Shown in pieces: positions 10,646-47,049 of a stretch of DNA of 64,000 nucleotides (the first letter of the stretch is position 1; every line of letters starts with the position of its first letter). The notes beneath the pieces are model-generated. The model did no database searches, was not told the origin of the DNA, and saw only the letters and a list, made by a program, of their open reading frames with translations. The stretch is from a virus (taxonomy: Duplodnaviria > Heunggongvirae > Uroviricota > Caudoviricetes): the IMG/VR virus record IMGVR_UViG_3300021426_000084, one strand, 5' to 3'. The position numbers were made by a program, and so were the translations under genes.

Positions 10646-11320
10646 ATGATAAAGTTTAAAGGCGCAAATATTGAAAAGATTATGTTGGCAACGTCCAACA
10701 AGGGCAAGATTCGCGAACTTCGGGAACTGTTTTCGGACGTTCCCGTAGAAATTGTTTCTATTGAAGACTTCTTCGGCGACAATCTGCCTACCGAGCCAGA
10801 AGAAAATGCAAAAACATTTGCCGGCAACGCAAAAATCAAAGCTGATTATTACGCCCGCCTCTCAGGGATGCCTTGCATCGCTGACGATTCTGGATTGCTG
10901 GTCAGTGAACTAAACGGAGCACCTGGACTGTATTCCCATCGTTTTGCCGCCACGGAAACCAATCCTAACCCAACTGACGACGACAAGAACAAGAAGCTTA
11001 TCGAATTGCTTCATCTTAATGGCTTATCAGAGTCCGACGCTGAGTACTATTGCGCCATAACAATGATTATTCCTAAAAGCATTGGCGTAGATTGTGATTA
11101 TGAGTTCCCGAATATAGGCAGCCTGTATGGCAAGTTCAAAGATGTTGCCTCTGGTACAAACGGATTCTCTTTCGATAAGCACTTTTATCTGAAGGAATAC
11201 GATTATAAGAAAACGGCAGCTGATATTTCTCCTGAAGAAAAGAATCGAATCAGTCACCGTGCCATTGCTATGAACAGGCTAAAAGACGACATCAAACGCT
11301 TTTTTGAGTTTGGAGGATAA
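10646..11320 (+). CDS. rdgB: non-canonical purine NTP pyrophosphatase (RdgB/Ham1, ITPase family)
   Basis: ATSNKGKIRELRELF ... ADDSGL ... NGAPGLYSHRFA motifs. Confidence 0.75.
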   Translation: MIKFKGANIEKIMLATSNKGKIRELRELFSDVPVEIVSIEDFFGDNLPTEPEENAKTFAGNAKIKADYYARLSGMPCIADDSGLLVSELNGAPGLYSHRFAATETNPNPTDDDKNKKLIELLHLNGLSESDAEYYCAITMIIPKSIGVDCDYEFPNIGSLYGKFKDVASGTNGFSFDKHFYLKEYDYKKTAADISPEEKNRISHRAIAMNRLKDDIKRFFEFGG

Positions 11321-11615: not shown

Positions 11616-12113
11616 GTGAAAGTAACGATTAATGGCCATGAGTTCAACTACTCTGGCTCAGGAAGTATATCCGTCAATGGTAACCATGTGGTAATCAACG
11701 GCCAGACTATTGATGGCGAATTCATGGAAAGCAAGGTCATCGATATTTGTGTCGAGGGTAATGTAGAGCACATCGAATCGACCGGTTCCGTAGCTGTCAA
11801 TGGTAACGTAGACCGCGTGGAGGCCGGCGGCACGGTTAAAGTCAGCGGTGACGCTGCTAGTGTTAATGCCGGTGGCAGCGTACTTGTTGAAGGTCAGGTA
11901 CATGGCGATATCAATGCGGGCGGAAGCGTGCATTGTGAAGAATGCAAATCATCCCAGACGAATGACCGGCAGTATTATGAAAAGGTCATTAAAGATGCTT
12001 ATGAGAGCAAAAAGGGTTTAGAAACCGTAGAAGAAGGCATACATTTTACAGATGCGCTTCGAGCCCTGTTCGGTACAAAATTGTATAATAAAAAGGGAAG
12101 TGGCAGGATATGA
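11616..12113 (+). CDS. beta-helical repeat protein (bactofilin-like)
   Basis: repeated V-N-G-N / A-G-G-S-V segments. Confidence 0.4.
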   Translation: MKVTINGHEFNYSGSGSISVNGNHVVINGQTIDGEFMESKVIDICVEGNVEHIESTGSVAVNGNVDRVEAGGTVKVSGDAASVNAGGSVLVEGQVHGDINAGGSVHCEECKSSQTNDRQYYEKVIKDAYESKKGLETVEEGIHFTDALRALFGTKLYNKKGSGRI

Positions 12114-18437: not shown

Positions 18438-19706
18438 GTGGCAGATATTCTATTGAAGAGTTTCTTTGAAAAATCGCGGTGGGAATCTGCCATTGATACG
18501 GGCGTAGCTAAACGTCTGGACAGATGCATGCTGAAAGAAATGTGTACTAAAGAAGGGCGCCTTGACCTTTACCATCGCATTCGTGATAACAAGTATTACA
18601 TCCGCCCACCGCATGAAGCACTTATCCCCAAGGATAACGGGGAATTTCGAACGGTTTACGTTAACGAAAATGAAGACCGAATTATCCTGTCCATCATCAA
18701 TGACATGCTGTTCGACCTGTATCCACAGAAAGTACATCCGGCCTGCCGTTCTTACCAGAAAGGTATCGGATGCGGCAAGATAGTGCAGGAGGCATCCAAA
18801 GTCCTGGCCGGTATTCATAGCAGCATCGTAGGCTACAAGGTTGACCTTAGTAAGTATTTCGACTCTGTACCTCGCCAGTATATCGATGAAGTATTTGATG
18901 ATGTCGAAAGTAAATTCGGCGCATCCAAAATCATCGATATCCTGCGTGAGTATTATCATACGGATATGGTATATAATCTGCAGAAAAAGCTGATTGAAAA
19001 ATACTCAAGCTTAAGACAGGGATGTGCCGTGGCCGCATATCTTGCCGATGCCGTTCTTTATGACATTGACGATTGCTTATCCAAAATGCCGGGTATTTAC
19101 TACGTCCGTTACTCCGACGACATTCTTATCCTGGGTGAACAAAACAGAACCGGAAAAGCCTTTGACAAACTCAGTGAACTTCTGACGCAGAAAGAGCTGA
19201 AGCTAAATCCAAAGAAGGTGGAAGTCCTGCAAAAAGACCGCTGGTTTAAGTTCCTGGGTTTCACACTGAAGGAAAATCATATCAGCCTGTCTAAGTCACG
19301 AATTAAGAGATTCCAAAAGGCAATTGATGAGCATACATTCAAAGGCAAGTCAAGGAATGAATACCAGCTGGTCAAGAATGTGTTCCGCGCCTTATATCAG
19401 GGCGAAGATGATTACAGTTGGGGAACTAGCGTATTGCCCATCATTAATGTTCAGAAGGACATCGATACCCTGAATTCTTATGTCATGGATGCTATTCGGG
19501 CGGCCATAACCGGGAAAACCCGTATTGGCGGCCTTGGCGTCACAATAAATCAAAGAGATTGTACTATTGCCAGAGGCAAGGGGCGTAACGTTAAGATGAA
19601 TCGGATAAAAAATCCTGTATTGGAATCTTATCTGAGTATCGGTTGCATGCGTAATGCCCTTCTAACTTCGAAAGAGGCTTATTTGACTTTGGCTATGTCA
19701 ATCTGA
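18438..19706 (+). CDS. reverse transcriptase (free-standing, group-II-intron-like/unclassified lineage)
   Basis: RT motifs 1-7: IPKDNGEFRTV, SYQKGIG, GYKVDLSKYFDSV, LRQGCAVAAYLAD, YYVRYSDDILIL (YxDD), LNPKKVEV, FKFLGF; about 110-aa thumb-like C-terminus; GTG start after aggaggg. Confidence 0.85.
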   Translation: MADILLKSFFEKSRWESAIDTGVAKRLDRCMLKEMCTKEGRLDLYHRIRDNKYYIRPPHEALIPKDNGEFRTVYVNENEDRIILSIINDMLFDLYPQKVHPACRSYQKGIGCGKIVQEASKVLAGIHSSIVGYKVDLSKYFDSVPRQYIDEVFDDVESKFGASKIIDILREYYHTDMVYNLQKKLIEKYSSLRQGCAVAAYLADAVLYDIDDCLSKMPGIYYVRYSDDILILGEQNRTGKAFDKLSELLTQKELKLNPKKVEVLQKDRWFKFLGFTLKENHISLSKSRIKRFQKAIDEHTFKGKSRNEYQLVKNVFRALYQGEDDYSWGTSVLPIINVQKDIDTLNSYVMDAIRAAITGKTRIGGLGVTINQRDCTIARGKGRNVKMNRIKNPVLESYLSIGCMRNALLTSKEAYLTLAMSI

Positions 19707-25930: not shown

Positions 25931-26407
25931 CTGCTTAGTAACTGAAAACGTACTCAGGTATGTAAAAATGTGTAGCAATATGCTAAAGACTCAAGAAATC
26001 CATTGAGTTAGTTCGTGCTGACTTTATAGCAGTCGGAATGGCTGGAAATAAACCAGAGGCGGTTGAAACAGTCCGTCTAACTACGGGATAGCACCCTGAT
26101 GGTAGCCGTTGGACAGTGGTAAATGCGAGAACCAAGCAAAGGCTGGCGAGCCTAAACGCAAAACAATATCACGAAAGGAGAAAGCTACTAGATGTAATCG
26201 GCAGAATATCATAAACAAGATACTGTCGATATGTACCGATGGCTAGTCGGGAATTTACGTCTTCGGAGTATCACACAAACGTTAGTAGCCTGTCTTTCGG
26301 GACGGCGAGAACGGATACGATGAACAAGGAACTACAAATCGTGAGATTGTAGCGATACATCTTGATATAGGCATATTTGTCTATATTTTAAGTAGCAGTA
26401 ACTGCCG

Positions 26408-26953: not shown

Positions 26954-27043
26954 CGCAAAAGGCCCCCAAAAGGGGGCCAACTGCGTGTTAGGTAACAAAA
27001 AAAGAAAGTGTTTCAATCCACTCCCGGTCAAAGCCAGGAGACA

Positions 27044-27205
27044 AGCCGCCTATTCGGCGGTAAACATGATATTCCAAATTCATAGATTTCTAAGCCGCCT
27101 ATCCGGCGGGAAAAAGGAACCACCAATTTGATAGATTTCTAAGCCACCTACTCGGCGGTAAACAAAACCAAGAAAAATATAAATTTCTAAGCCGCCTATG
27201 CGGCG
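27044..27205. repeat. four direct repeats of a 16-bp GC hairpin (gccRcctaYNcggcgg) at exact 49-bp spacing; copies 2-4 share the 5' flank atttctaa
   Basis: copies at 27044, 27093, 27142 and 27190; AT-rich variable spacers of about 25 bp. Confidence 0.7.
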
Positions 27206-27319
27206 GTGAACTGGAATATCATGATATAATGATATCAGAAATTTTTTTCTTTGTCTAGCAGGAGTCTTAAAGGATATGCTAGAATAAAGAAAGAAGATTG
27301 TGTAAAAGGGGGATTAATT

Positions 27320-30289: not shown

Positions 30290-30364
30290 TCCCCAGTAGC
30301 TCAGCTGGTAGAGCATCTGACGATTAATCAGGTGACGCAGGTTCGAGTCCTGCCTGGGGAGCCA
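30290..30364 (+). tRNA. tRNA, anticodon unresolved (loop CGATTAA lacks U33)
   Basis: 7-bp acceptor stem tccccag/ctgggga, D-arm gctc/gagc, T-loop ttcgagt, CCA encoded. Confidence 0.6.
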
Positions 30365-31018
30365 ATTTAATATTAACAAACAGAAAACTATGGCAAAGCA
30401 TACCTCGGTTATAAAACGCAATATCATGCGTCCGAGAATGGCCCCGTAATTGATACTGACAAACTGCAGTAGATATGCCTGCAGCGAGTACGTCCTTTCT
30501 TAGCGATAAGAGTAGGGTGATGCGTAAAGTGTAAGCGCATGTATCTTGAGGTTATGTGCATGCAATGCCGAGCGTTAAAGCAGGAACTGATAGGGTTTCA
30601 TAAGTGTATGAGTACAAATGGTGTGCTCCGCTGCCGCCAGTAAAGACTAAAGCGTGATAAACTTTAGGTACACGAGGTATTTATCAAGATGGAACTTTGC
30701 CGTGATGTCTTCAAAAGAGACTATAACTGTCAGTCGCCGTATGAGTAGCCCAAGGCAATGATACAGATCAAGTATGTAGCTTTATAGCAATCTATAATTC
30801 TGAATGACGGGTGAAAGTTGGAAGTCTTAATCTTCTCGGAGCTAGAAAGAGGCAAGAAGCGCGTGTCGACGGGCGCGTTGCTCAGACTTGTCTTCTCCGT
30901 GGCTGAATAAATGCAGAGCATCAAGTTGTGTACAGGGAAACCTGATGTTTTGCCGTAGTTTTGTGTTTGTTAATAACACAACTAAAAATGCGCCCAAGCG
31001 GCGCGGTTACAATTTTGT

Positions 31019-31094
31019 GTACCTTTGGTGTAATTGGTAACACGGCAGTCTCCAAAACTGTAAGATGTTGGTTCGAGTCCAGCAGGGTATGCCA
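31019..31094 (+). tRNA. tRNA-Trp (CCA)
   Basis: cloverleaf with anticodon loop ctCCAaa; CCA end. Confidence 0.75.
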
Positions 31095-31099
31095 TCTAT

Positions 31100-31173
31100 G
31101 CCGGTATAGCTCAATGGGGATAGAGCACCGAAACGTAACCTCGGCGACTCAGGTTCGAGTCCTGATACTGGCT
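31100..31173 (+). tRNA. tRNA or tRNA-like, anticodon unresolved (loop ACGTAAC)
   Basis: acceptor gccggta/tactggc, D-arm gctc/gagc, T-loop ttcgagt; no encoded CCA. Confidence 0.45.
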
Positions 31174-31556
31174 TAGCTAATTTAGTCTTACTGGTCTGAT
31201 CAACCGGTTAGGCGAAACACTACATGTAGTGCCGCGTAAAAGCGGTGTCCTTCGCGGTCGAGGGACATTAAAATTGACGGCCGCCTGTTTACGTCCCAGT
31301 ATCAGGTTAACGTCTGATCAGAGGCATACATTTTTCAGGGCGCCCACCGCAGCGCGGCACCACCGTTAATTATACGCCTAATGCCAAATGCGGTTAACTT
31401 GAATAATCCCCGTAAGGGATTAGATATATTGTTGTTAGACCCAGACGGTCGGCGACAAAGCACTGGTCACTATCCGACCACTCCGTAACTAAAATCCGTC
31501 AGCTACCGGAGGGAAACAGGACAGGTCCTGGGTAAGACATAACTGCCCACGCAAAA

Positions 31557-31632
31557 GCGGAAATAGCTCAGTTGGTAGAGCTTCTGCCTTCCAAGCAGAA
31601 TGTCGCGAGTTCGAGTCTCGTTTTCCGCTCCA
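31557..31632 (+). tRNA. tRNA-Gly (UCC)
   Basis: acceptor gcggaaa/tttccgc; anticodon loop ctTCCaa; CCA. Confidence 0.75.
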
Positions 31633-31638
31633 TATTAT

Positions 31639-31725
31639 GCCCCTGTCGCATAGAGGCCGATTGCACCGGTTTTGTAAACCGGTTCCGAAAAGGACACGTC
31701 AGTTCGAATCTGACCGGGGGCTCCA
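31639..31725 (+). tRNA. type II (long variable arm) tRNA, anticodon unresolved (loop TTTGTAA, apparent UGU)
   Basis: acceptor gcccctg/cgggggc, T-arm gtcag-ttcgaat-ctgac, 15-nt variable arm, CCA. Confidence 0.5.
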
Positions 31726-31773
31726 TAAAAACAAAAAAGCAAGACTATAAAAACATAAGGAAGGTAACAAACA

Positions 31774-32046
31774 TTGACATCTCTTGAATGGAATGACCTT
31801 GCCTCAAAATTCTATAGCTTCAAATCCGAGGCAGAAAAACATGGTTTCTATGTGCCAGAACTGGCCGGCATGGAAAACAGCCTGAATATCATTCGTCCCT
31901 ACCAGGAAAACGAAGAACTGCATAAGAAAACGGCAAGTGGATTTGTATCTCGTATGCAGAGTAAGGCTGATGATGTTAAGGCCTGGGCGTTGGCAAAGTT
32001 CAGCGCGCCGAAGTATAATGACGATGATGAGCTGGTGCATGCCTGA
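31774..32046 (+). CDS. hypothetical protein
   Basis: TTG start after taaggaaggtaa. Confidence 0.5.
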   Translation: MTSLEWNDLASKFYSFKSEAEKHGFYVPELAGMENSLNIIRPYQENEELHKKTASGFVSRMQSKADDVKAWALAKFSAPKYNDDDELVHA

Positions 32047-32288
32047 TGTTTAATTTTTCTAAATACGATATGCTGACTCTACTTGATGAGTATGTCACAT
32101 ACATTATGGCAACATGCGCAATTTTTACGGTAACAATCTTCGTCGCAATGGTAAAACATTCCCTTGAAACGGCGGTGATAATCGCTATCATGATTTTTAT
32201 CATAGGTCCAGCCGCGGGTTTCTTAGGTAGAACTATATATGACTTTATTTTAGAGAGGTTTGGTGGCAATGGTAAAGACTTATTCTAA
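32046..32288 (+). CDS. small membrane protein
   Basis: two hydrophobic helices. Confidence 0.45.
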   Translation: MFNFSKYDMLTLLDEYVTYIMATCAIFTVTIFVAMVKHSLETAVIIAIMIFIIGPAAGFLGRTIYDFILERFGGNGKDLF

Positions 32289-32513
32289 CACTAAAAAGGC
32301 AAAAGCGCTGTTTTATCCGAAGGCTAAGTGTTGCGCACACACCAATGTTATGATTGGCGGCGGCCGTTTGATGGGCCGCTACGTAGGATCGACCGGTAAA
32401 CGATGATAGCGTTAATGCTTGCTGTCGTGGTCTGGTGTTGTACGGATAACGGCTACGCAGCATTAGCAGCGTTCTTTGCTTGCTTAGCTTTGGAAAAATA
32501 AATGAGGAAAAAC

Positions 32514-33140
32514 ATGAACAATTGTCTTAAAAAGGAAATTATCTGCAGCTATAAACCTGGCGATTGGTTCGATAGGATTCCACTTGCGCATCTTTGCGAC
32601 GGCGGTATAACAGCAATCAATGTAGACCGCCGTTTTGGAAAGTCCACATTCGTCGCCAATGCAGCCAAAAAGATTTTGTCGCAAGATATGGCTGACATCA
32701 TTGTTGTTGAGTGTGGCGGCAAAAACAGAATAAAACTCATGAAAACGGTCTTTAAGGAAGTTTTCGGCGATAATTTCGAAAAACAGTACCCGCAGATTGA
32801 GATAAGGCCTCATGGCAATAGAGCACTAAGTAAGCGGCGTACAGTAATATTTATTGATGAATTTTCGTATACGGCAACCGACGATGACATCCATGAAATT
32901 CTGAAAAGCGAGCTCATCAGCGATGCACAAACCTGGATTCTTCTGGATACTTCTTATGAAGGTTCAACCGATATGAAAGACAAGAATCCGTTCGCTGGCT
33001 TACTAGAAATGCCCTTCGTAAGAACCTACGAAGTGGTTGGTCGCATTCCTGAAGAATGTCTCGCTTATTATAGCGATGAACAGCAGCAAGCGATTAAAAA
33101 GCGTCAAGAAGCATTTCATCTCCAGTGTTTCATGTTTTAA
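32514..33140 (+). CDS. P-loop NTPase-like protein
   Basis: Walker A-like VDRRFGKSTF and Walker B-like VIFIDEF. Confidence 0.5.
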   Translation: MNNCLKKEIICSYKPGDWFDRIPLAHLCDGGITAINVDRRFGKSTFVANAAKKILSQDMADIIVVECGGKNRIKLMKTVFKEVFGDNFEKQYPQIEIRPHGNRALSKRRTVIFIDEFSYTATDDDIHEILKSELISDAQTWILLDTSYEGSTDMKDKNPFAGLLEMPFVRTYEVVGRIPEECLAYYSDEQQQAIKKRQEAFHLQCFMF

Positions 33141-33223
33141 ACAAATCCCCCTCCATGTGACCGGCTAGGACGAGGCCATAGAATATCGTCCACTTTATTA
33201 AAATTCTGTTATAGGAGAGAAAA

Positions 33224-33451
33224 ATGACAGTATATATGGTTATTCACCAAACTTTGTGCGATGATTATGACCAGGACGTTATGGGTGTTTTTTCAAACGC
33301 CGAAGCCGCCCAGGCGTGCTATGACGACTGGATTAATGAATACGGCCTTGAGGGTTGTGACAATGGCGCGTATTACAATGATGGTGAACATCGCTTAGAA
33401 ATTCACTCATATAAAATTGAGGAAACTTACGAGCGAGATTCAGATTTTTAA
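33224..33451 (+). CDS. small acidic hypothetical protein
   Basis: 75-aa ORF with SD aggagagaaaa. Confidence 0.45.
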   Translation: MTVYMVIHQTLCDDYDQDVMGVFSNAEAAQACYDDWINEYGLEGCDNGAYYNDGEHRLEIHSYKIEETYERDSDF

Positions 33452-34102
33452 ATTTTGCGACCGACACTAATGTCGGCCATAAAACATGCGTGACCTGACT
33501 GCTGGTTGCCAAGAGAACCATGCAGCGAATAAAGAATGCGAAGAAGACTGACGTCATTCATCGCAAGCCTCGGAGAGCCCTGAAAGAAACTTGGCCTGTG
33601 GCAGAAATCTCCAATGAGGACACCGTAAACGCAAAATGAATTACGGTACAATCCGGCCCTAGAGAACAAGCCGGATAGACGCAAAGACCCTTACGGGTCT
33701 GAAAGATTATAGGAATAAGTGGGTCATCACCAAACCACCTATAACTGACGTTAGGCGCAGCGGAAAGACAAGTGCGATAGATGGTATGCCCAAGCCGAAT
33801 AAAAGTGAGGTCGTTCCTTATCGGAGCGAAGAAAAGTAGAGGCTTAGTCAGCACGGCGACAATGCAAAGAAAAGTTCGTGTAAAGCCGCGTTGTAAAATC
33901 AAAAGATTCAGCCCAGACCAGGCTCATAGCAGGAGGGGTTGACGCGCAATAATGACTTCATACCTTCTGGTATGGTCGCTGGACAAGGAAAAGTCTAAAA
34001 ACCCGGCACGAGAGAGGCTACACCGATGCTGAGTAGCTGAGCTGTTTGAGACGAGCAGTCATCCCGTGACGGCAGGATGTAAAATGAAGCCGCCCCTATA
34101 AT

Positions 34103-34185
34103 GAGGCAGTAGCTTAAATGGCTAGAGCAGACGGGAAAGCAAATGGGGCTTTCTTATGATGGTGGTTCGACTCCTCCCTGCCTCC
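34103..34185 (+). other. tRNA-like element (perfect acceptor pair, D- and T-arms, non-canonical anticodon region)
   Basis: gaggcag...ctgcctc acceptor pair; T-loop ttcgact; the middle 33 nt does not form a standard anticodon arm. Confidence 0.4.
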
Positions 34186-34198
34186 CCTATATCATACA

Positions 34199-34269
34199 TC
34201 CCCAAAGCTCCTCCGGCAGGGCTCGTAAGGCTACGGCCTGCGGCGAAGGTTCGAATCCTTCTTGGGGAT
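34199..34269 (+). other. tRNA-like element (acceptor pair plus T-arm, no canonical D/anticodon arms)
   Basis: tccccaa...ttgggga; gaagg-ttcgaat-ccttc. Confidence 0.35.
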
Positions 34270-35996
34270 ATCATGCTCATAGTCTGGGGGACACCGGCCG
34301 GTAGACAGGTTCGATTCCTGTAATGGGCAAAAACAAAATGCTTTCACGGAAAGTGTGCTCACCGCGAAAGAAGTTTTAGCCGCAGCAGACCGCACACCCT
34401 GGTAAATACGGCAAAAACGATGTTTCCCGATATCAAAGAATCGGGCATCAATGACTGTGGATGCGTATAAATAGACAGTCAGCTTGAGTCACCGTGGACC
34501 CCGGATACCCCAAAAGGAGTATGCCGGCTAACGCCTAGCCGAAATGGCGGGCGGCCCTGTGGGGCGCGATCCACGACACAAAAGCTTTCCTGCAGGCGGT
34601 GGGTTAACCTAGCGTATAGAAGGGGCTCCATTACCCCTGAGACAAAAGTCTCGAAGAGATGACCATTGAAGAAGGGTCTCCATTAACCCTGGCTGTAACC
34701 AGAATAGGCCAACCGTGTTTTCGGGCTCGCATCGTTATGAGCGTCCCGATTACCCGGCGCCAACAGCCGAAGAGATGACCTTTATCGGAGCGTTCGCTAT
34801 CGGACAATTACTGGGGAAGTAAGAACTAAAGGCCACGGTTTTTAGCACCCAGAATAACGACGCGAAGGCATTCCTTTCGGTGGAGGTATACCGAAGAACA
34901 ATATGAAACCTGGGCCGTCCCGATAACGCCATAAAGTACAAATGGTAGCTCGGTCAAACGGTAGCAAGGTTGCACCAAGCGTACCTGGATTACCTTCGCC
35001 TGGACGGACTAAAGTACACGGTCTATCAATTTAAGGGCGATAACAGGCACGAAGGCGATTTAGCCCCGGACAAGGCGAAAAACTGTTTAGTAGGCACCGA
35101 TTACTACTTAATAAGACAGTCGGGAACAGTGAAGACTCACTCTAAACAGGCTAGATGAGCATGGGTATCGCCCATGCCGAAGTTATCGGCCACTTCGCTG
35201 AAGACGACCGATGTGTTTGCGGGACGACCGCAACTGGGAGTGCATCCTCTCAGGATAAACCTGCAGAAGATACCTGTCCGAAACAGGATAGGGAAACCGG
35301 TGGCCAAGGCAATAATCCGGTAAACACCGATATATGTAGGACTCCCCTGCGGGGCGAGTAAGTTCATCGGTGGCCGCAAAAAGAAAACATCTCATAAGCG
35401 AGAGTCCGGTCATGAAAGCTAATCCCTTTCAGGCTCTCCCGATGCTGCTTATCTTTTCGGGCATTAAAAACACCAGACCTCGTAAGCGAAGACAGAGAGG
35501 ACGCTCTCGTTCAAATCGGTGAAGCTTGCCATCACCTATGTACAAAAAGCCTTGCCATGTAGAGCGAGCATGATGCTGCTGTAGAGTAGGTCGGGCATCA
35601 AAGATTTTAGACCTCGTAAGCAAAGACAGAGGAAACGTCCTCGTTCAAATCGGTATGAAGCTTACCCCAGATGACGGGCATTTGCCAAAGCTTGGATGGG
35701 TTAATCCGACATAGCGCTGCTACACTTCGGGCGCTAAATTAATCACACAACTGCTTGTATAAGTGCGTGTATGACTGCCGTGGAGGGGCTGCGCGTGATG
35801 GGAGAGGTTCTGCCTGATAGTGACCAAAAGAGTTCAACTACCGTGAGTCCCACGGGGAAACAACAAGCCCTGTACCTTACGAAACAGGCATGGCGCCGCT
35901 TTATGATAGTTGTTCGGGCGCTAAAAACCTGCACTGGCAACTTCATCTTTCATTGTCAGTAAAAGCGTTTGATAACCCGACCCGAAAGGGTCATAT

Positions 35997-36399
35997 GGGG
36001 CTGTAAAGGTTTCGACAGGATATTGAAGCCGTAAGATTCGCAGGCCGATGGTTATGAAGCCTAACTCATTAACCGCTAAATTCAACTGACGAAGCTGAAT
36101 ATCGTCTCGCTGCCTAATCTGCCTTAACGGTAGATTGGTTAGCCCCTATCGTATCACTAGCTGTGAGCAGGGCGATAGGTTTCAAATAAACACAGCAAAA
36201 CGTCAGGAGGCCCGCTCGACGTAAACAACACGGGGAGTTTTCCTGCTTTCTCAAAAGCAGGTGGTGGAGGTGTAGACCATTGCATCGTTGTTCGGCTGGT
36301 TACACCCTAGAGAATGGCGCTCTTAAAAATGCCTATTGCGATAATGTCTTACAGGTGGATGTATTTTGGACAGGAGTTCGATTCTCCTCAGCTCCACCA
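35997..36399 (+). ncRNA. ssrA: tmRNA (ssrA)
   Basis: 5' ggggctgtaaaggtttcgacagg and 3' ggacaggagttcgattctcctcagctccacca match tmRNA tRNA-like domain consensus; internal tag frame ends ...DEAEYRLAA-TAA. Confidence 0.8.
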
Positions 36400-36582
36400 T
36401 CGTTTCAACGAGGTTAGCGTCTCGAAGAAGCGGATTGAGAAGCTAAAATCAGCCATATCGGCTGATTGAAGTAAATCTGTGATTCTGCAGAATCTCTGGA
36501 AGCTTGCGCCAGACTTGGAATACAGCAAGACAGGTTTACTTCAGTGAACCGATATGGAAAGTAAAAATAGGGGGTACATATC

Positions 36583-36918
36583 ATGACAATTGAAGAGTTT
36601 TCTGAAAAGATAAAACTCAAAGAAGAAAACGTAGGACGATTAAAAGAATACATCAAACAGGCAGATAGAATGGACTCGGTTGTATTTTGGTATCGCAAAA
36701 CGGAAGAATACATGGGCAATCATGGTTACGCCGAAGGCGACAATAGTTTTTCCGTTGCTATTAAAGATAATAGCGGCCTCTTTGGCCCTGATTTTAATGA
36801 GTTAAAGACGCATTATCTTCAGATATTAGAAGACGAATTAGCTAAAGCTGAAAATGAACTGAAAGCCATGAAAGAGAAAAAGATAAAAATAGAAGAGTGG
36901 CTTTCTGAAGAATTATGA
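36583..36918 (+). CDS. coiled-coil hypothetical protein
   Basis: 111-aa ORF with SD aaaatagggggt. Confidence 0.5.
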   Translation: MTIEEFSEKIKLKEENVGRLKEYIKQADRMDSVVFWYRKTEEYMGNHGYAEGDNSFSVAIKDNSGLFGPDFNELKTHYLQILEDELAKAENELKAMKEKKIKIEEWLSEEL

Positions 36919-37472
36919 ACAAGACAGTAAAGTTATATCTTCTCGGTGGTACTGCTGTCGTAGACTTTGTTTATTCGGCAACATCACCAATTATTCATAT
37001 ATATTTCATAAGTCTGATAAGTTCCAGCGTTTTGGCCATGGCCAATATCCTGACCACCGCTTTAGCAGCAGGTGTAAATGCTTCGATTCAGTCTGACAAA
37101 CTTAAGGATTTTTATCGGCATCATTTTCTCTGGATAATTACAATAGATATTATCTGCTTCGCGCTTATCAGTTTCGAAGGTATATCTATACCGGAAGTCA
37201 GGTTTCTCGGCTTAGCAGTTTTAAATGCTGTGTCATCAACACTCTGGTTTACGGTAATAAACGACGCGATTAATCATCAAATTGAAGGCGATAGATTGAC
37301 AAAATGGAATAGCTTATCTAAAACGGTTAACCTTACAGCCGCCCTCGCCGGCAGCGTAATCGCGATAATCTTTACAAATATCGGCGTAGAGTATTGTATC
37401 GCGGCCCAGTGCATAGCAAATCTTGTCATGGGTGCAACTGATTGGCTGGCTTATAAGAGGATAAGATATTGA
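36915..37472 (+). CDS. integral membrane protein (about 5 TM helices)
   Basis: hydrophobic throughout; ATGA overlap. Confidence 0.55.
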   Translation: MNKTVKLYLLGGTAVVDFVYSATSPIIHIYFISLISSSVLAMANILTTALAAGVNASIQSDKLKDFYRHHFLWIITIDIICFALISFEGISIPEVRFLGLAVLNAVSSTLWFTVINDAINHQIEGDRLTKWNSLSKTVNLTAALAGSVIAIIFTNIGVEYCIAAQCIANLVMGATDWLAYKRIRY

Positions 37473-37618
37473 TTAATCTGCTTGATTTTATTATATACTT
37501 TTTTATTTTCATCACGTTACTGTGTATAATAAAAGCCACTATTGTTCTTGGCTTCACAATAACTTTTCCGGCAATTTTGATGTTTGTAGCTATTGTTTTG
37601 GCAATGATGGAGGAAGAA

Positions 37619-37818
37619 TGAGTAAAAGAAATTTACGCATTGGCGATAATGCTTATCTGGCTAATTGTGAAGACTGGTCAAATAGCTATTATCCTTGCAA
37701 AGTCATCAAGGTAAGGGATGACAACACGTATGACTTGTACGAACCTAGTATTGGCAAAACTCATTACGGTGTTCATCGTGATGCTATTGTGGATCAGATT
37801 GAATTCGATGCCGGATGA
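37619..37818 (+). CDS. small hypothetical protein
   Basis: ATG 37619 after ggaggaaga. Confidence 0.45.
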
Positions 37819-37845
37819 TGAGATATTAAAAGGGGATAGAATTAC

Positions 37846-38094
37846 ATGATAGCGAAAAAGACGTGGAATGAGTTTAGAGAGACAGGCTTATTCCTTCTGG
37901 TAAATCAGTTCCTGCACATTTTTGGATGGGCGTTGGTTGTTGAGGCAACGGAAGACGGAGAAGTAATTGAATGTTATCCCGCCCGCACTAAATTCAGAGG
38001 ATTTGGCGAGAAAAGCGTTTCGGCAGCTTACCAAAAAGTAAGCAAATATATGGCAGATAACGCCGCCGAGTTATACGAAGAAGCAAAGCGATAA
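37846..38094 (+). CDS. hypothetical protein
   Basis: 82-aa ORF with SD aaaggggat. Confidence 0.5.
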   Translation: MIAKKTWNEFRETGLFLLVNQFLHIFGWALVVEATEDGEVIECYPARTKFRGFGEKSVSAAYQKVSKYMADNAAELYEEAKR

Positions 38095-38219
38095 TGGAGA
38101 AAAAATCGAATGATAGCAATAGATGACAGTTTTGTGGCGGCCATGCTTATATTCGCCTTCGCAATGATTTGGGTAATAGCGATTGGAGCTGTATCCATGT
38201 TGAATGATGAAGATAGAAC

Positions 38220-38417
38220 ATGAATAAAGTCATTGATTTACAAAAGTACAGAGAAGAAAACAACCCACATGAAGTGGCCGAAGTAATCTGTTTGCATTGT
38301 ATGAACCGTTGGATATCCGTGCATGAGCAAGGTGAATGGCTTGCTAAATGGGAATGTCCTAAATGTAGTAAAGTGGGCGGCATTATATATACGGGACAAC
38401 CATTGCCAGAGGAGTGA
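38220..38417 (+). CDS. small zinc-ribbon protein
   Basis: CLHC...CPKC. Confidence 0.45.
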   Translation: MNKVIDLQKYREENNPHEVAEVICLHCMNRWISVHEQGEWLAKWECPKCSKVGGIIYTGQPLPEE

Positions 38418-38484
38418 ATAAATAATGAATGATGAATGGACGTAAAAGCTAACAACAGATAGCACTAGATGAGGAGTGATAAGC

Positions 38485-38712
38485 TTGAAAAAATATATGA
38501 TTGGAGTCCTGATGGGGCTAATCATTGGCTTAACAGCTACGGCGTTTGCCGGTTATTGGAGTCAGAGTGTTACTGTTTATACTGACCCAGACACGCAGGT
38601 GCAATACCTTATCGTCGAAGAAAATAGCAGTGATGGCATGGGTGTTGGTATCTGCCCGCGTTACACGTCTTCCGGCAACATTATGTATGTTGGCAGTGAG
38701 ATAGTAGAATGA
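38485..38712 (+). CDS. small membrane/secreted protein
   Basis: TTG start after gaggag; hydrophobic N-terminus. Confidence 0.45.
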   Translation: MKKYMIGVLMGLIIGLTATAFAGYWSQSVTVYTDPDTQVQYLIVEENSSDGMGVGICPRYTSSGNIMYVGSEIVE

Positions 38713-38921
38713 TTAGGTCAAAAAAGCTTCGATATTACAACAAGAAAATGTGGCGCGCATTATATGTTTGCCATAATTCGAGAAATACATTACTCGATAG
38801 TATAACGGGAGTTTTTGGAAATCCTCCGCACCGTCCTGAGCGGGGATTAAAATTTGCCGCTGAACTATATCAATGTCTAGGATTAAAACTTCCGACATTT
38901 TATGCGAGAGAAGACAGATGA
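38709..38921 (+). CDS. hypothetical protein
   Basis: 70-aa ORF with ATGA overlap. Confidence 0.4.
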   Translation: MIRSKKLRYYNKKMWRALYVCHNSRNTLLDSITGVFGNPPHRPERGLKFAAELYQCLGLKLPTFYAREDR

Positions 38922-39103
38922 TGGAATTCAAATTAAATCCAAAGCTTGAAGAATGGATAAATGAGCATAACAAAATCTGTCATTCCAATGCTTCGGCCGG
39001 CGAACATTATCAATTTGAATTTCTACCAACAGGCATTATGGAAATCCAAACCGTTAAATGTCTTTGCTGCGGAGAAGAAAGGACAGAATATGATGGCTGG
39101 TGA
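38918..39103 (+). CDS. small zinc-ribbon protein
   Basis: CHS...C...CLCCGE. Confidence 0.4.
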   Translation: MMEFKLNPKLEEWINEHNKICHSNASAGEHYQFEFLPTGIMEIQTVKCLCCGEERTEYDGW

Positions 39104-39299
39104 ATGGGCGCAAAAATTGACAACAGAACGAGTAATTAAACATATTCAAGATGGTATAAAGAAAGCGCACAAAGCATTTTTGGCTCAACAAGCTATCCTT
39201 TCAATGAATAAATCTCACAGAAGGCGTCGGCAAATAGCAAAAGCTTATAAGCTGATTTACCCAATGGCAACGATAAATTTGACAAGGAAAAGTCATTAA
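39090..39299 (+). CDS. small basic protein
   Basis: ATG 39090 after gaaaggacag. Confidence 0.4.
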   Translation: MMAGEWAQKLTTERVIKHIQDGIKKAHKAFLAQQAILSMNKSHRRRRQIAKAYKLIYPMATINLTRKSH

Positions 39300-39860
39300 A
39301 ACCCATCACAGCAGGAGCGTCTGTGGATACGTTGAGCTCGCACCCAGGAGTCAATAGCCGTGTTAAAGTCAGGCAACGTAGAGGCCAAATACTTAGATAT
39401 AATAGTAGTATCACCCCGTCGCGCAGGGGAGGTGTACGGTGCAAGTCCGTACAGACATTGGCAAGAGAGCTTCATAATCTGCAGTAAAGCAGCAAAAATC
39501 CTCCGCCCATGTTCGCAACAGGTAAAGGGCGTAAAAGATGTAAACCTGTCCGGCCGAACGCAAAACCTGTGATGCATGCTGTAACAGGAAGGTCACTGCC
39601 GCCTTAAGAGAAGAAAAGTGATTCCCATGGAGAACTCCAGTGTGGTCCGTTCCGCTCCATGGTATAGCTATTGCGTTATGCTATGTAAAAAGTACGCACG
39701 TTCGGGTGAATGTGAGACCCCGCGTGAGGAACAACGAAAGAGATTCCTGTTTTCCCAGCATTTTTGGTACAAAAATGTTGCGCCAGCCTTTGACCTGACC
39801 AGTCAATAAAAAGTCAGCGATATGACCAGGGGGGCAGTTAGCTTGAGCCCCCACCATTAT

Positions 39861-39953
39861 GGGAGATTGGACCTGGATTGGAGCCAGGGCAGCATTTAGC
39901 GCTGCGCAGGGTACGCGCCCTCAACGTAAGTTCGAATCTTACATCTCCCGCCA
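39861..39953 (+). tRNA. type II tRNA (93 nt), anticodon loop ATTTAGC (apparent UUA or UAG; unresolved)
   Basis: acceptor gggagat/atctccc, T-arm gtaag-ttcgaat-cttac, long variable arm, CCA encoded. Confidence 0.5.
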
Positions 39954-40121
39954 AAAGAAAAAAACAGGTGATAAATATGTCTCCTCTCGATTGGCTTGAT
40001 GATGAAGAAGATAAAATTGATCATCATTAAGGGGCCATCCGTAGTCCACTGCAAAGGACGAGCCGGTAGAATGATGGGTTGGCATCCTCCGTTTCGGGCT
40101 TCGTAAAAAGTACCACAAGGG

Positions 40122-40160
40122 CTGCGGCGTGATTTGCAGACGCCGCAGAATTACTCTTGT
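40122..40160 (+). terminator. hairpin, possible terminator
   Basis: ctgcggcg ... cgccgcag stem followed by a partly T-rich tract. Confidence 0.35.
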
Positions 40161-40169
40161 TATTATTAT

Positions 40170-40246
40170 GCGCCACTTAGCTTAACAGGAAGAGCCTATG
40201 GGTCTAGCTCATAGAGATTCTGGTTCAAATCCAGAGGGGCGCACCA
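40170..40246 (+). tRNA. type I tRNA with apparent CUA anticodon (amber-suppressor-like)
   Basis: acceptor gcgccac/ggggcgc (one mismatch), D gctt/gagc, anticodon stem tatgg/tcata with loop gtCTAgc, T-arm tctgg-ttcaaat-ccaga, ACCA. Confidence 0.5.
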
Positions 40247-40544
40247 ATATCATGTCCCTAATGAGGTTAGCGTCTCAGCGGGGAGGAATCCGTTTTAGTT
40301 TACCCTGAGGAATAGGCAATGATGAGTGCGCAATTATCTAGCTGAAACGAGGGGTAAATGAGGGCCTGCAGGGCAACCAGGTGCGGATATAGTATGCAGA
40401 GAACTACAACCTGCCGGAAACTTGACTGCCGTTATAGATGTCAAGCGTAGAATACCACGTTAGGTGTATCGAGGGAGCCGGCAATCTCCCGACGTCAGCC
40501 AAAAACTTACCAGAGGCGGCAAATTGCCATGCCGTCTCGATTAA

Positions 40545-40621
40545 GGACCCCTAGCTCAGTTGGTCAGAGCATCCGGCTCATAACCGGCGGGTCCTCGGTT
40601 CAAGTCCGAGGGGGTCCACCA
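40545..40621 (+). tRNA. tRNA-Met/Ile2 (CAU)
   Basis: acceptor ggacccc/ggggtcc; loop ctCATaa; CCA. Confidence 0.7.
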
Positions 40622-41285
40622 TAATGGAACAGGCAAGGCGAAAGTCTTGTAAGTTCCTCTCCTTTTCTAAACCAATGAACTACAAAAACAGCGAGTGTCC
40701 TGAACTTCGGTTCAGGCGCCCGTAGAGCCCTTAATGAAGGTTGAGGGTTGTACGGGCGAAAGCCCGACCAAGAATATTACAATAACTGCGCGGGGACAGT
40801 ATAACAGCCCTGTAGTGCTTCGGTGGTCTGTGCACGAAAGAAATACAGCCTTCCACTTATGAGGGGTCGTTGAGAGGTGGGCGCATCGTCGTCGTAGGTT
40901 CGAACCCTACCGTCCCTCATCTATTATGGCAGCGTTGGCTATATCGGGTATCTGGTTGCAAACGGATACTTTGATGAATGGGTGGGCCAATGAAACTGGA
41001 AGAGGTTGCAAACTCCGAAGGGTACGCGGGTTCAACTCCCGCCGCTGTCTCTATCATGTCAGTGTCGGCATAATGGTAATGCCAGGGCCGCAAGCCTGAT
41101 ATGCGGGTTCAACTCCCGCCGCTGACCGTATACGTAAAGTCATGTGACTTGTCATTCTTTCCGAGGGTTATCAAGACTCAAACAAGAAACCCTTCGCAAC
41201 ATTTCAAGCTTTGGCTGGCGTCTGTCTTACGACAGGAACACTGGAGGCAAAGCTAGGGGCAGTTGGCAACAGCTGCTCCGGTACT

Positions 41286-41360
41286 AGGGGTATCGCCAAG
41301 CGGTTAAGGCACCGGGTTTTGATCCCGGCATCTTCAGTTCAAATCTGAATACCCCCGCCA
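41286..41360 (+). tRNA. tRNA-Gln (UUG)
   Basis: anticodon stem ccggg/cccgg with loop ttTTGat; T-arm ttcag-ttcaaat-ctgaa; GCCA end. Confidence 0.6.
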
Positions 41361-41364
41361 TTAT

Positions 41365-41469
41365 GGGAAGCAATCTGGTGGTTTGTAAGTGCAAATGCAG
41401 GTTCGACTCCTGCCACCTCGTAAGAGGTTTGGGGAAAACAAGGGCCCGGTTCGATTCCGGGGCTTCCCG
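41365..41469 (+). other. tRNA-like element with two T-arm-like hairpins inside one acceptor pair
   Basis: gggaagc ... gcagg-ttcgact-cctgc ... cccgg-ttcgatt-ccggg ... gcttccc. Confidence 0.4.
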
Positions 41470-41771
41470 CCTTAATCATGAAGCTAATATGTTGGCGTCA
41501 GCTTTCCTCGTATGATAAAGATACGGATAAGCTATATGGCCGTATATTGGCACCGGTAAAAGCTCGAAACAAAAGTAAGTAGCCGGGGCAAGACCGGGAC
41601 ACCTCCTGGAATTTATTGTGAACATCGAGATTATTATGCATATACTTTTTGTCCAAAAAGCCAGGTGTGGCTTCCGACTCGATGCGGTTAAAAGAGGATG
41701 AAAAGTATAGTGAAGATATCTACAAAGGGCAACCGCTTAGTCGAGCTCCCTGCGAATCGGATATCTATCAT

Positions 41772-41846
41772 GGCTTGGTAGTCTAGTGGTTAGGCAACGG
41801 TCTGCAAAACCGTTTTACGCCGGTTCGATTCCGGCCCAAGCCTCCA
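41772..41846 (+). tRNA. tRNA-Cys (GCA)
   Basis: acceptor ggcttgg/ccaagcc; loop ctGCAaa; CCA. Confidence 0.75.
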
Positions 41847-41852
41847 TATCAT

Positions 41853-41949
41853 GGGAAACGTCATGGTGGCGGAAAAGAGCATTCGGGTTCGATTCCCGAC
41901 GCCCTGCGGGGTCCGTGGTGGTCAGCCTGGTTCGAGTCCAGGGTTTCCT
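41853..41949 (+). other. second tRNA-like element with two T-arm-like hairpins
   Basis: gggaaac ... tcggg-ttcgatt-cccga ... cctgg-ttcgagt-ccagg ... gtttcct. Confidence 0.4.
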
Positions 41950-42289
41950 TTACATTGCCGTAGTAACTCTGCGTATGTATACCTTCCGTTAAAGGCGACT
42001 CAAACGCCGGAAGCCGGGCCTACAGCCCGAGGCAGCGAAATCCCTCCGATTTGAGCGGAGAACCTGACAGCCAGCTCGAAGTTTTAGTAGGGCAGGTTCA
42101 TGTCGAAATGGTAGCGGTGGCGAAGTCCTTGGGGTGGATGAGTAGCCGATATTGGAGTTCCTATATTGGACAGTAAAAGCGGGTTCGATTCCCGACACGC
42201 CGACGGGCGTCCTGGTGGTAAAGTGCCGGTGCGTGCAGGCTTCAAATCCGGATTGAGCCTGTGCAATTCCGGCAGCTCCAAACTATTAT

Positions 42290-42382
42290 GGAGATGTACC
42301 CAAGTGGTTTAAGGGGGCTGCTTTGAAAGCAGATAGGCCGCAGTGATGCGACGCGCGGGTTCGAATCCTGCCATCTCCTCCA
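42290..42382 (+). tRNA. tRNA-Ser (UGA), type II
   Basis: acceptor ggagatg/catctcc; loop ttTGAaa; long variable arm; CCA. Confidence 0.7.
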
Positions 42383-42388
42383 TATTAC

Positions 42389-42476
42389 GGAGAGGTGTCC
42401 GAGTGGCTAAAGGAACCGGTTTCGAAAATCGGCGTACTGAAAAGTACCGTGGGTTCGAATCCCACTCTCTCCGCCA
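42389..42476 (+). tRNA. tRNA-Ser (CGA), type II
   Basis: acceptor ggagagg/tctctcc; loop ttCGAaa; long variable arm; CCA. Confidence 0.7.
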
Positions 42477-46707: not shown

Positions 46708-47049
46708 ATGAATTTTCAAAAGCGCAAGCAATTGGTTAGGCAGTGCATAGCTGGTGCAAGAAACAACTGTCTTTGTCTGCCGCAGTTTATCTCCGGCTGG
46801 TTGGAAGTAGTCAACGAATCGAATAGCAAATGCGCGCCAGAAGACAAAATAATCATAGCCATCTGGAAAAACAGTGAAGGATACTGTGTTCACAGCGTTG
46901 ATGTTAAGGTCGACGAAGATACTGTTTTTGGCGGCTGGGAACTTGGCAGAGAACTTAGTGTGGCAGAAGAAGAGTATAAGAACAAGGACGATGCCATCAA
47001 ATGCATTGAGGAATACACGCGCCAATATCGGACGTTACTAAAAGCATAA
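46708..47049 (+). CDS. hypothetical protein
   Basis: 113-aa ORF. Confidence 0.5.
   Translation: MNFQKRKQLVRQCIAGARNNCLCLPQFISGWLEVVNESNSKCAPEDKIIIAIWKNSEGYCVHSVDVKVDEDTVFGGWELGRELSVAEEEYKNKDDAIKCIEEYTRQYRTLLKA

Follow-up and report, generated by a model that had tools for sequence, protein, structure and literature searches.

Suppressor transfer RNAs (tRNAs), which read stop codons, are well documented in phages and have been linked to the reassignment of TAG to glutamine and to a reassignment of TGA reported as tryptophan or glycine (10.1101/2021.08.26.457843; PMC13037316). Reassignment of TAA was found in neither of these two surveys. The gain of a suppressor by relatives that keep the standard code has been proposed as the first step to recoding (Borges et al., 10.1101/2021.08.26.457843). 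TAA-reading tRNAs have been tallied, and one is reported in phiKp24, a jumbo phage with the standard code (PMC8386662). Here, we analyzed two tRNA genes with stop anticodons, one reading ochre (UUA) and the other amber (CUA), in a stretch of 64,000 nt of the phage record IMGVR_UViG_3300021426_000084. This whole stretch is referred to as the window and is labelled haplotype L012 in the strain comparisons. The inspected sequence comprises the window and 10 kb on each side, amounting to 84 kb of a 334 kb genome whose structural and lysis genes must lie in the other ~250 kb. The presence of the two stop-anticodon tRNA genes is real and above chance. We interpret them as two genuine, probably weak, accessory suppressor tRNAs that would provide low-level read-through or nonsense buffering, not a full code change, and give this reading a rough probability of 0.4. 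Phage suppressor tRNAs, including the Sup-TTA of phiKp24, are already known; new here are a conserved ochre and amber pair, an unusual serine-like architecture, and a strain-level swap of an anticodon loop.

The ochre-reading gene (39861–39953, + strand) encodes a type II tRNA of 93 nt, which ARAGORN calls as tRNA-Stop(tta) within exactly the boundaries that an earlier, sequence-only reading had drawn. The cloverleaf is the minimum-free-energy fold, with a z-score of −2.51 relative to dinucleotide shuffles, 4 of 200 of which fold as well. The UUA anticodon at 39896–39898 lies in a seven-base loop that reads ATTTAGC in the sequence, with U33 and a purine at position 37, and the 3′ end carries a G73 discriminator and an encoded CCA. 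The sequence-only reading had left the anticodon between TTA and TAG. The former is confirmed, and the TAG register is excluded by covariation, since two compensatory changes fix the 5-bp anticodon stem and place UUA at positions 34–36. An odd linker of 5 nt at positions 8–9 had also been described. The oddness is real, and the best fold has a 7/5 acceptor/T branch with four bases, UGGA, linking the acceptor and D stems; the D arm consists of a 5-bp stem and a 7-nt loop, and base 26 is missing. The more canonical D stem drawn by ARAGORN is poorly paired. The variable arm is long, with a 5-bp stem and a 4-nt loop. The combination of such an arm with a discriminator of serine identity, which in that class is G73 or U73 and here is G73, is a trait of allo-tRNAs. 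An assignment to that class was rejected, because the eighth acceptor pair would oppose U8 and an unpairable C, leaving only the 7/5 branch. The sole Rfam match is to the model of the selenocysteine tRNA (tRNA-Sec, RF01852), at 31.5 bits against a gathering threshold of 47. This identity was rejected as well, as the branch is 7/5 rather than the bacterial 8/5 and the anticodon is UUA rather than UCA.

The amber-reading gene (40170–40246, + strand) encodes a type I tRNA of 77 nt with the anticodon CUA at 40204–40206. ARAGORN reports it as tRNA-'Pyl'(cta) at the coordinates, and with the anticodon, of the sequence-only reading. Its cloverleaf is likewise the minimum-free-energy fold (z = −2.59 relative to dinucleotide shuffles; 1 of 200 shuffles folds as well). 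The seven-base loop, GTCTAGC, has U33 and a purine at position 37, and the 3′ end consists of an A73 discriminator and an encoded CCA. Both tRNAs share a GG in the D loop and a TTCRAAT T loop. The acceptor stem of the CUA tRNA contains an invariant A6·G mismatch, and two drawings of the molecule, a 7/5 form whose linker has 3 nt and an 8/4 form whose linker is the canonical UA, fit the sequences equally. It narrowly passes the Rfam tRNA model, with 32.0 bits against a threshold of 29 and E = 0.009 for the whole window. 'Pyl' is merely the name that ARAGORN gives to a CTA anticodon. The pyrrolysine (Pyl) tRNA is marked by a 6-bp anticodon stem, a variable loop of 3 nt, a small D loop without GG, and a single base between the acceptor and D stems, together with the pylS and pylBCD genes. 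The CUA tRNA was rejected as such a molecule: its anticodon stem has 5 bp, its variable loop 5 nt, and its D loop 8 nt with GG. No Pyl genes occur in the Pfam lists of the gene tables for the window and flanks. An identity as an allo-tRNA was also rejected, since the 8/4 branch can be drawn, yet the long variable arm is missing. ARAGORN thus calls tta and cta, with no sense anticodons. Together with the minimum-free-energy folds and the covariation that sets the stem register, these calls rule out the mis-parsed loop once offered as an explanation. Rfam searches with E values up to 10 detected no ribozyme adjoining either tRNA, neither of the hepatitis delta virus (HDV)-like type that is linked to phage suppressor tRNAs nor of any other.

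Homologs were found in five haplotypes of one jumbo-phage clade. The UUA tRNA is present in the window, L015, L013, L017 (a 211 kb IMG/VR contig), and the more divergent L141 (a 79.7 kb contig of the Joint Genome Institute, JGI). The second tRNA has the CUA anticodon in the window and L015, and a replaced 'UGC' loop in L013 and L017; in L141, a CUA tRNA occupies another slot of the array, after tRNA-Gln. Further contigs are IMGVR_UViG_3300019373_000006 and Ga0256405_10001080 among the carriers and IMGVR_UViG_3300023713_000001 among the non-carriers. Neither tRNA lies within the 10 kb fetched for each of L002 and L003, the closest non-carrier relatives. The adjacency of the two genes noted by the sequence-only reading holds in the window and is not conserved: in L141, tRNA-Met and tRNA-Gln intervene and the distance is 1.2 kb. 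The L141 copies diverge from those of the window at 8.6% and 10.4% of bases for the two tRNAs, and paired cells across the homologs of both amount to 95–98%. In the CUA tRNA, four pairs have changed on both sides, one of them in the acceptor stem (4:70), two in the anticodon stem (28:44 and 30:42), and one in the T stem (52:64; numbers are alignment columns), and the covariation score is attained by just 1 of 500 shuffles. The compensatory pairs of the UUA tRNA, 29:45 and 31:43, are both located in the anticodon stem; this tRNA additionally shows two G·U pairs and two acceptor mismatches. The loop AUUUAGC is the same in all copies of the UUA tRNA, as is GUCUAGC in the window and L141.

On the alignments, the covariation already disfavors the idea that these are ordinary phage tRNA genes in decay, with anticodons mutated by chance and heading for loss, which we consider very improbable. 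The tRNA content does change fast among the relatives, including the absence of both genes from the fetched region of L002 and L003, and exact-pattern scans revealed no bacterial tRNA with the D arm of the UUA tRNA or with the D arm and T loop of the CUA tRNA. Nevertheless, both tRNAs are kept in L141 with structure-preserving substitutions at the divergence given above, and no fetched array contains a sense-anticodon twin of either suppressor that could serve as a recent source.

The second tRNA of L013 and L017 keeps its body to within 2 bases, while the loop region GGUCUAGCU is replaced by ACUGCAG. ARAGORN reads this allele as 'Ala UGC'; it has C33, a stem of 4–5 bp, no G3:U70 pair, and a weaker fold (z = −1.47). 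The occurrence of CUA in L141 makes it likely that this form is ancestral and that the 'UGC' loop came later as a replacement. The replacement in these two strains indicates that the CUA anticodon is dispensable. The fetched loci contain no donor for the replaced or the CUA anticodon arm, and a single 17-mer match in IMG/VR, considered as an arm donor, was a chance match inside a gene. The tRNA slots of the array behave like cassettes: the position of the window's CUA slot (40170–40246) is held in L141 by a 48-nt hairpin (GAGCAC...GTGCTC, 10859–10906), the L141 CUA tRNA lies at 11796–11872, and the flanking motifs TTATTAT and TATCAT are exchanged between the two locations. In L013 and L017, the UUA tRNA is also preceded by a truncated tRNA-like 5′ half.

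The 'UGC' allele, with its C33 and 4–5 bp stem, is one of several observations consistent with non-decoding tRNA-like RNAs that are kept for their shape, either as ribonuclease (RNase) P/Z punctuation of a polycistronic RNA island or as decoys or ligands of a protein, from host or phage, that recognizes anticodon arms, the stop anticodons being incidental. The island that holds both genes also contains a tRNA-like RNA at 41058–41127 (L141 11487–11556; Rfam tRNA, 37.5 bits), kept in L141, which is predicted to be unable to decode, with a 4-bp anticodon-arm stem and a 5-nt CGCAA loop. Several other tRNAs of the island are non-canonical, the two suppressors and a type I 'Leu(UAA)' of the relatives have an unusual A36-G37-C38, and the Rfam scores of the two tRNAs are low. 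Moreover, phage tRNAs with altered anticodon loops evade defenses that target tRNAs (PMC10264068). Against these points stand the loops, which are canonical in their length of 7 nt, their U33, and the purine at position 37, and the encoded CCA. The compensatory changes cluster in the anticodon stems, which an RNase P/Z processing signal would not need. We know of no defense system that targets a stop-anticodon tRNA, nor of an obvious decoy model, which also counts against non-decoding RNAs. A host-defense countermeasure, one of the possibilities in the sequence-only reading, is a conjecture. On balance, we regard the explanation by non-decoding RNAs as unlikely, but it is kept in play by the element at 41058–41127 and the odd G37-C38.

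The genetic code of the inspected region bears on what the two tRNAs could do. The 138 + strand open reading frames (ORFs) of the window end with TAA in 73 cases (53% of genes), TGA in 57, and TAG in 8, in agreement with the sequence-only statement that many genes end with TAA and some with TAG. Under the standard code, 85% of the window is coding, with tightly tiled + strand ORFs whose sole gaps are RNA genes, and the gene calls that came with the assemblies likewise cover both the window and its flanks without fragmentation. In-frame stops were searched for by tblastn, using the ORFs of relatives against the window and flanks and the window genes against other carriers. The in-frame TAG codons that had been proposed as a sign of recoding are absent from the inspected sequence, as are in-frame TAA codons: no in-frame stop aligns with a sense codon in any real gene of the 84 kb. 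The matches that contained stops were antisense or spurious frames or RNA regions, and an apparent TAA in L141 lies in an overlapping frame that is non-coding by its substitution pattern. In a crude test, treating each stop as sense resulted only in the fusion of neighboring genes. The code is standard over the 84 kb. The argument that constitutive, efficient suppression would be costly is borne out: in addition to the large share of genes ending with TAA, nearby back-up stops after TAA are lacking, the following in-frame stop coming after a median of 13 codons, and the tag ORF of the phage transfer-messenger RNA (tmRNA) ends in a single TAA.

A late-gene code change would leave this picture intact. 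Here, the two tRNAs would decode TAG, and perhaps TAA, codons within structural and lysis genes in other parts of the genome, and the early region would stay standard, as it does in TAG-recoded crAss-like, Lak, and other gut phages. We consider it unlikely, yet a serious contender. Suppressor tRNAs are strongly tied to recoding in gut and rumen phages, whose recoded codons cluster in late genes (Borges et al., 10.1101/2021.08.26.457843), and alternative codes occur in 8.75% of rumen jumbo phages (PMC13037316). The window looks early, with its genes on one strand and mostly small and the assemblies ending ~16 kb upstream, and TAG is its rarest terminator. Carriers use TAG as a terminator slightly less often than non-carriers do; the shortage is not significant (p = 0.11–0.28). 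Two otherwise conserved genes of L013 contain nonsense changes: TAC>TAA at codon 103 of 113 (L013 14355, ortholog of window 46708–47049), which is shared with L014 in a gene that otherwise differs only synonymously, and CAG>TAG at codon 44 of 68 (L013 2388, ortholog of window 35155–35361). However, against one TGA in non-carrier controls, these two polymorphisms represent a similar, anecdotal rate and are no commoner than expected from the controls. The absence of in-frame stops from the 84 kb also argues against recoding, as does the absence of release-factor and aminoacyl-tRNA synthetase genes from the gene tables of the window and flanks. The CUA anticodon has been lost in two close strains, and the better-conserved tRNA is the ochre one, although TAA is the main terminator and its reassignment appears in neither phage survey. 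A stronger version, in which the clade switches late to UAA and UAG as sense codons with UGA as the sole stop, the serine-like UUA tRNA serving as the main decoder and the CUA tRNA as an auxiliary, is highly improbable. If it were true, it would be the first reassignment of TAA in a virus of bacteria.

We favor weak accessory suppression, by tRNAs carried as strain-variable cargo, over late-gene recoding. In the proposed mechanism, both tRNAs would probably be transcribed together with the remainder of the + strand RNA island and would fold into L-shaped tRNAs ending in the encoded CCA. On the ribosome, the UUA tRNA would compete with release factors at UAA and, by wobble, at UAG, and the CUA tRNA at UAG. 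The UUA tRNA would probably be charged by the host seryl-tRNA synthetase (SerRS) and insert serine at UAA and, via U34 wobble, at UAG, because it has the long variable arm and G73 that SerRS recognizes and this enzyme ignores the anticodon (PMC5389517). The CUA tRNA is not expected to be charged with alanine, since it has A73 and no G3:U70. CUA suppressors are typically charged with glutamine or lysine. On the 3′ side of the loop, both suppressors have A36-G37-C38, unlike the island's canonical readers of UNN codons, which have A37-A38 (Trp, Cys, and both Ser tRNAs) or A37-C38 (Tyr); weak suppression is expected for this reason. The forecast draws on the extended anticodon and on the modification N6-isopentenyladenosine at position 37 (i6A37). 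Weak suppression fits a genome in which most genes terminate with TAA. The traits expected of decoders are present, including a 7-nt loop with U33, the D- and T-loop motifs, the encoded CCA, and selection on the anticodon stem. A supporting precedent is phiKp24, a jumbo phage that has a tRNA-Sup-TTA and the standard code (PMC8386662).

Several points weigh against weak suppression. The covariation of the UUA tRNA is modest, as 55 of 500 shuffles do as well. Taken alone, the lack of change in the 7-nt loops has no significance (P ~0.5 at 9–10% divergence), so that, as far as the alignments can tell, the real evidence of conservation is the structural covariation and not the identity of the loops. 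The G37-C38 that follows A36 is unusual for bacterial decoders, and the tRNAs could be non-decoders. We infer their expression, charging, strength, and targets from the sequence. The standard code is seen over 84 kb, and the ~250 kb with the late genes lie outside the inspected part. Finally, the benefit of a weak ochre suppressor is unexplained in a phage whose main terminator, and the end of whose tmRNA tag, is TAA.

The source of the phage was traced through its proteins. Those of the window occur unchanged on the ENA contig ERZ12302851 NODE_8 (334,475 bp), on contigs assembled from the run SRR873600, and on ENA scaffolds labelled SHIW14. The neighboring run SRR873603, cited in a study of the sheep rumen microbiome (Shi et al. 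2014, PMC4158751), also carries the phage (L016), and SRR873600 presumably belongs to the same sheep-rumen series. The relatives of the phage in IMG/VR are contigs of 207–235 kb, which makes it a jumbo phage; no close relative was found among GenBank phages. The genes of the window are all on the + strand, and its guanine–cytosine (GC) fraction is ~0.43. Both the ENA contig and the SRR873600 contig terminate ~16 kb upstream of window position 1, with ends less than ~800 bp apart, which suggests a genome end or a repeat, and the window would represent an early region close to one end of the genome. Breaks in the SRR873600 assembly fall at ~26.1 kb and ~42.4 kb of the window, at the borders of the RNA island, and the island appears to be heterogeneous between strains. 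No multi-copy protein families were found.

The island of tRNA and non-coding RNA genes extends over 30290–42476 on the + strand, with 13 tRNA/tmRNA calls by ARAGORN, a ROOL RNA (30380–30963, 216 bits), the phage tmRNA (35997–36399, tag DEAEYRLAA), and tRNA-like elements; its gene content varies between strains. Its non-canonical tRNAs at 30290–30364, 31100–31173, and 31639–31725 include an 'Asn(AUU)' that has G33 and A34, a type I 'Tyr(GUA)' that has C33 but lacks CCA, and a 'Thr(UGU)' whose variable arm is long. A further tRNA-like element at 34103–34185 is recognized by Rfam only. The relatives L002, L013, L015, and L017 have a type I 'Leu(UAA)' with the loop UUUAAGC, whose A36-G37-C38 is the same as in the suppressors.

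Directly 3′ of the UUA tRNA, a micro-ORF of 17 codons (39977–40030, + strand), preceded by the Shine-Dalgarno sequence AGGTGA, encodes MSPLDWLDDEEDKIDHH up to its stop codon. Its counterpart in L141 (~10681–10737) reads MSYPDWLDDEEDKIDFFV up to the stop, with many synonymous changes; the differences in L013 are synonymous, and the copy in L017 (− strand, ~2552–2505) is truncated after KID. Across strains the peptide is acidic and 15–18 codons long, with the core DWLDDEEDKID. Since the strain differences are mostly synonymous, the micro-ORF is probably translated. An autoregulatory read-through of the micro-ORF, based on its in-frame series of TAA, TAG, and TGA, was considered and rejected, as the series is not kept in L141 or L017. 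Immediately 5′ of the CUA slot, a long hairpin followed by a T-rich stretch (40115–40160, + strand) is highly conserved in the alignment and co-varies between the window and L141, with GGCGT/ACGCC changed to GGTAG/CTACC and AAG/CTT to GGG/CCC; a role as a terminator or processing element is possible. The spacers at 40032–40169 and 40250–40544, which include this hairpin, are GC-rich and equal the tRNAs in conservation. They match nothing in Rfam and probably represent uncharacterized structured RNAs.

Other elements of the window lie farther upstream. A RAGATH-18 RNA is located at 26260–26331. At 27043–27237, four tandem 49-nt units, each composed of a hairpin repeat of ~23 nt (AAGCCGCCTATTCGGCGGTAAAC) and a variable part, look like a CRISPR-like mini-array within the phage; Rfam matches CRISPR-DR4 at 27184–27211 on the − strand with 46.4 bits. 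A reverse transcriptase gene (RVT_1, 88 bits) at 18438–19706 has genes of the SIR2, PARG, SocA/Panacea-domain, and ProQ-like types nearby. It is not obviously part of a diversity-generating retroelement, and no template/variable repeat pair of at least 40 nt is present within 16.5–21.8 kb.

Phage suppressor tRNAs are a proposed first step to stop-codon reassignment, and in this clade the step is visible at the level of strains. Between close strains the amber loop has been swapped wholesale, while the ochre tRNA is kept despite the use of TAA as the main terminator. If the tRNAs are active, one may ask by what means a phage puts up with, or makes use of, read-through in its own genes; should the late genes be recoded, the known phage codes would extend to TAA. 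A serine-like 7/5 tRNA with a stop anticodon may also interest those who engineer orthogonal suppressor tRNAs.

The two tRNAs can be compared with several described systems. The classical nonsense suppressors include supD (Ser, CUA) and the ochre suppressors supC and supG of E. coli, as well as psu1 (Ser) of phage T4; the ochre suppressors among them read both UAA and UAG, are weak, and are tolerated. They arose as single anticodon mutations of a sense tRNA whose twin is still in the genome. The tRNAs described here are similar in that their anticodons are complementary to stop codons, whereas they have no sense twin and the 3′ side of their loops is non-canonical. Among the entries listed in the tRNA tables of the theta-ribozyme paper, no loop ending in -UAGC appears as a suppressor loop. 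The CUA tRNA resembles the tRNA-Sup(CUA) of TAG-recoded gut phages (crAss-like, Lak, and 'gemstone' clades; PMC9523058) in being phage-borne, in its location in a tRNA cluster of a large animal-gut phage, and in the rarity of TAG, which is the least used stop in both. In contrast to those phages, no in-frame TAG occurs in the 84 kb, the anticodon is polymorphic and lost in close strains, and the CUA tRNA has G37-C38 and an ochre companion.

The UUA tRNA is reminiscent of the allo-tRNAs, among them the (9/3) allo-tRNA-UUA (Mukai et al., PMC5389517), in its selenocysteine-tRNA-like appearance, long variable arm, and G73. The presumed anticodon-independent charging by SerRS, stop or otherwise odd anticodons, and occurrence in irregular tRNA polycistrons are likewise common to both. 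The allo-tRNAs, however, are acidobacterial, have a 12-bp acceptor branch split 8/4 or 9/3, and possess a D arm with a long stem and a tetraloop, whereas the UUA tRNA is phage-borne, can adopt only the 7/5 branch, and has a D arm with a 5-bp stem and a 7-nt loop. The tRNA-Sup-TTA of phiKp24 (PMC8386662) is likewise a predicted UAA reader, encoded by a jumbo Klebsiella phage that combines a large set of tRNAs with the standard code. That tRNA was assigned to arginine and comes from a single report; the UUA tRNA described here is a type II, serine-like molecule with an odd D region, and it is kept across its clade with compensatory changes.

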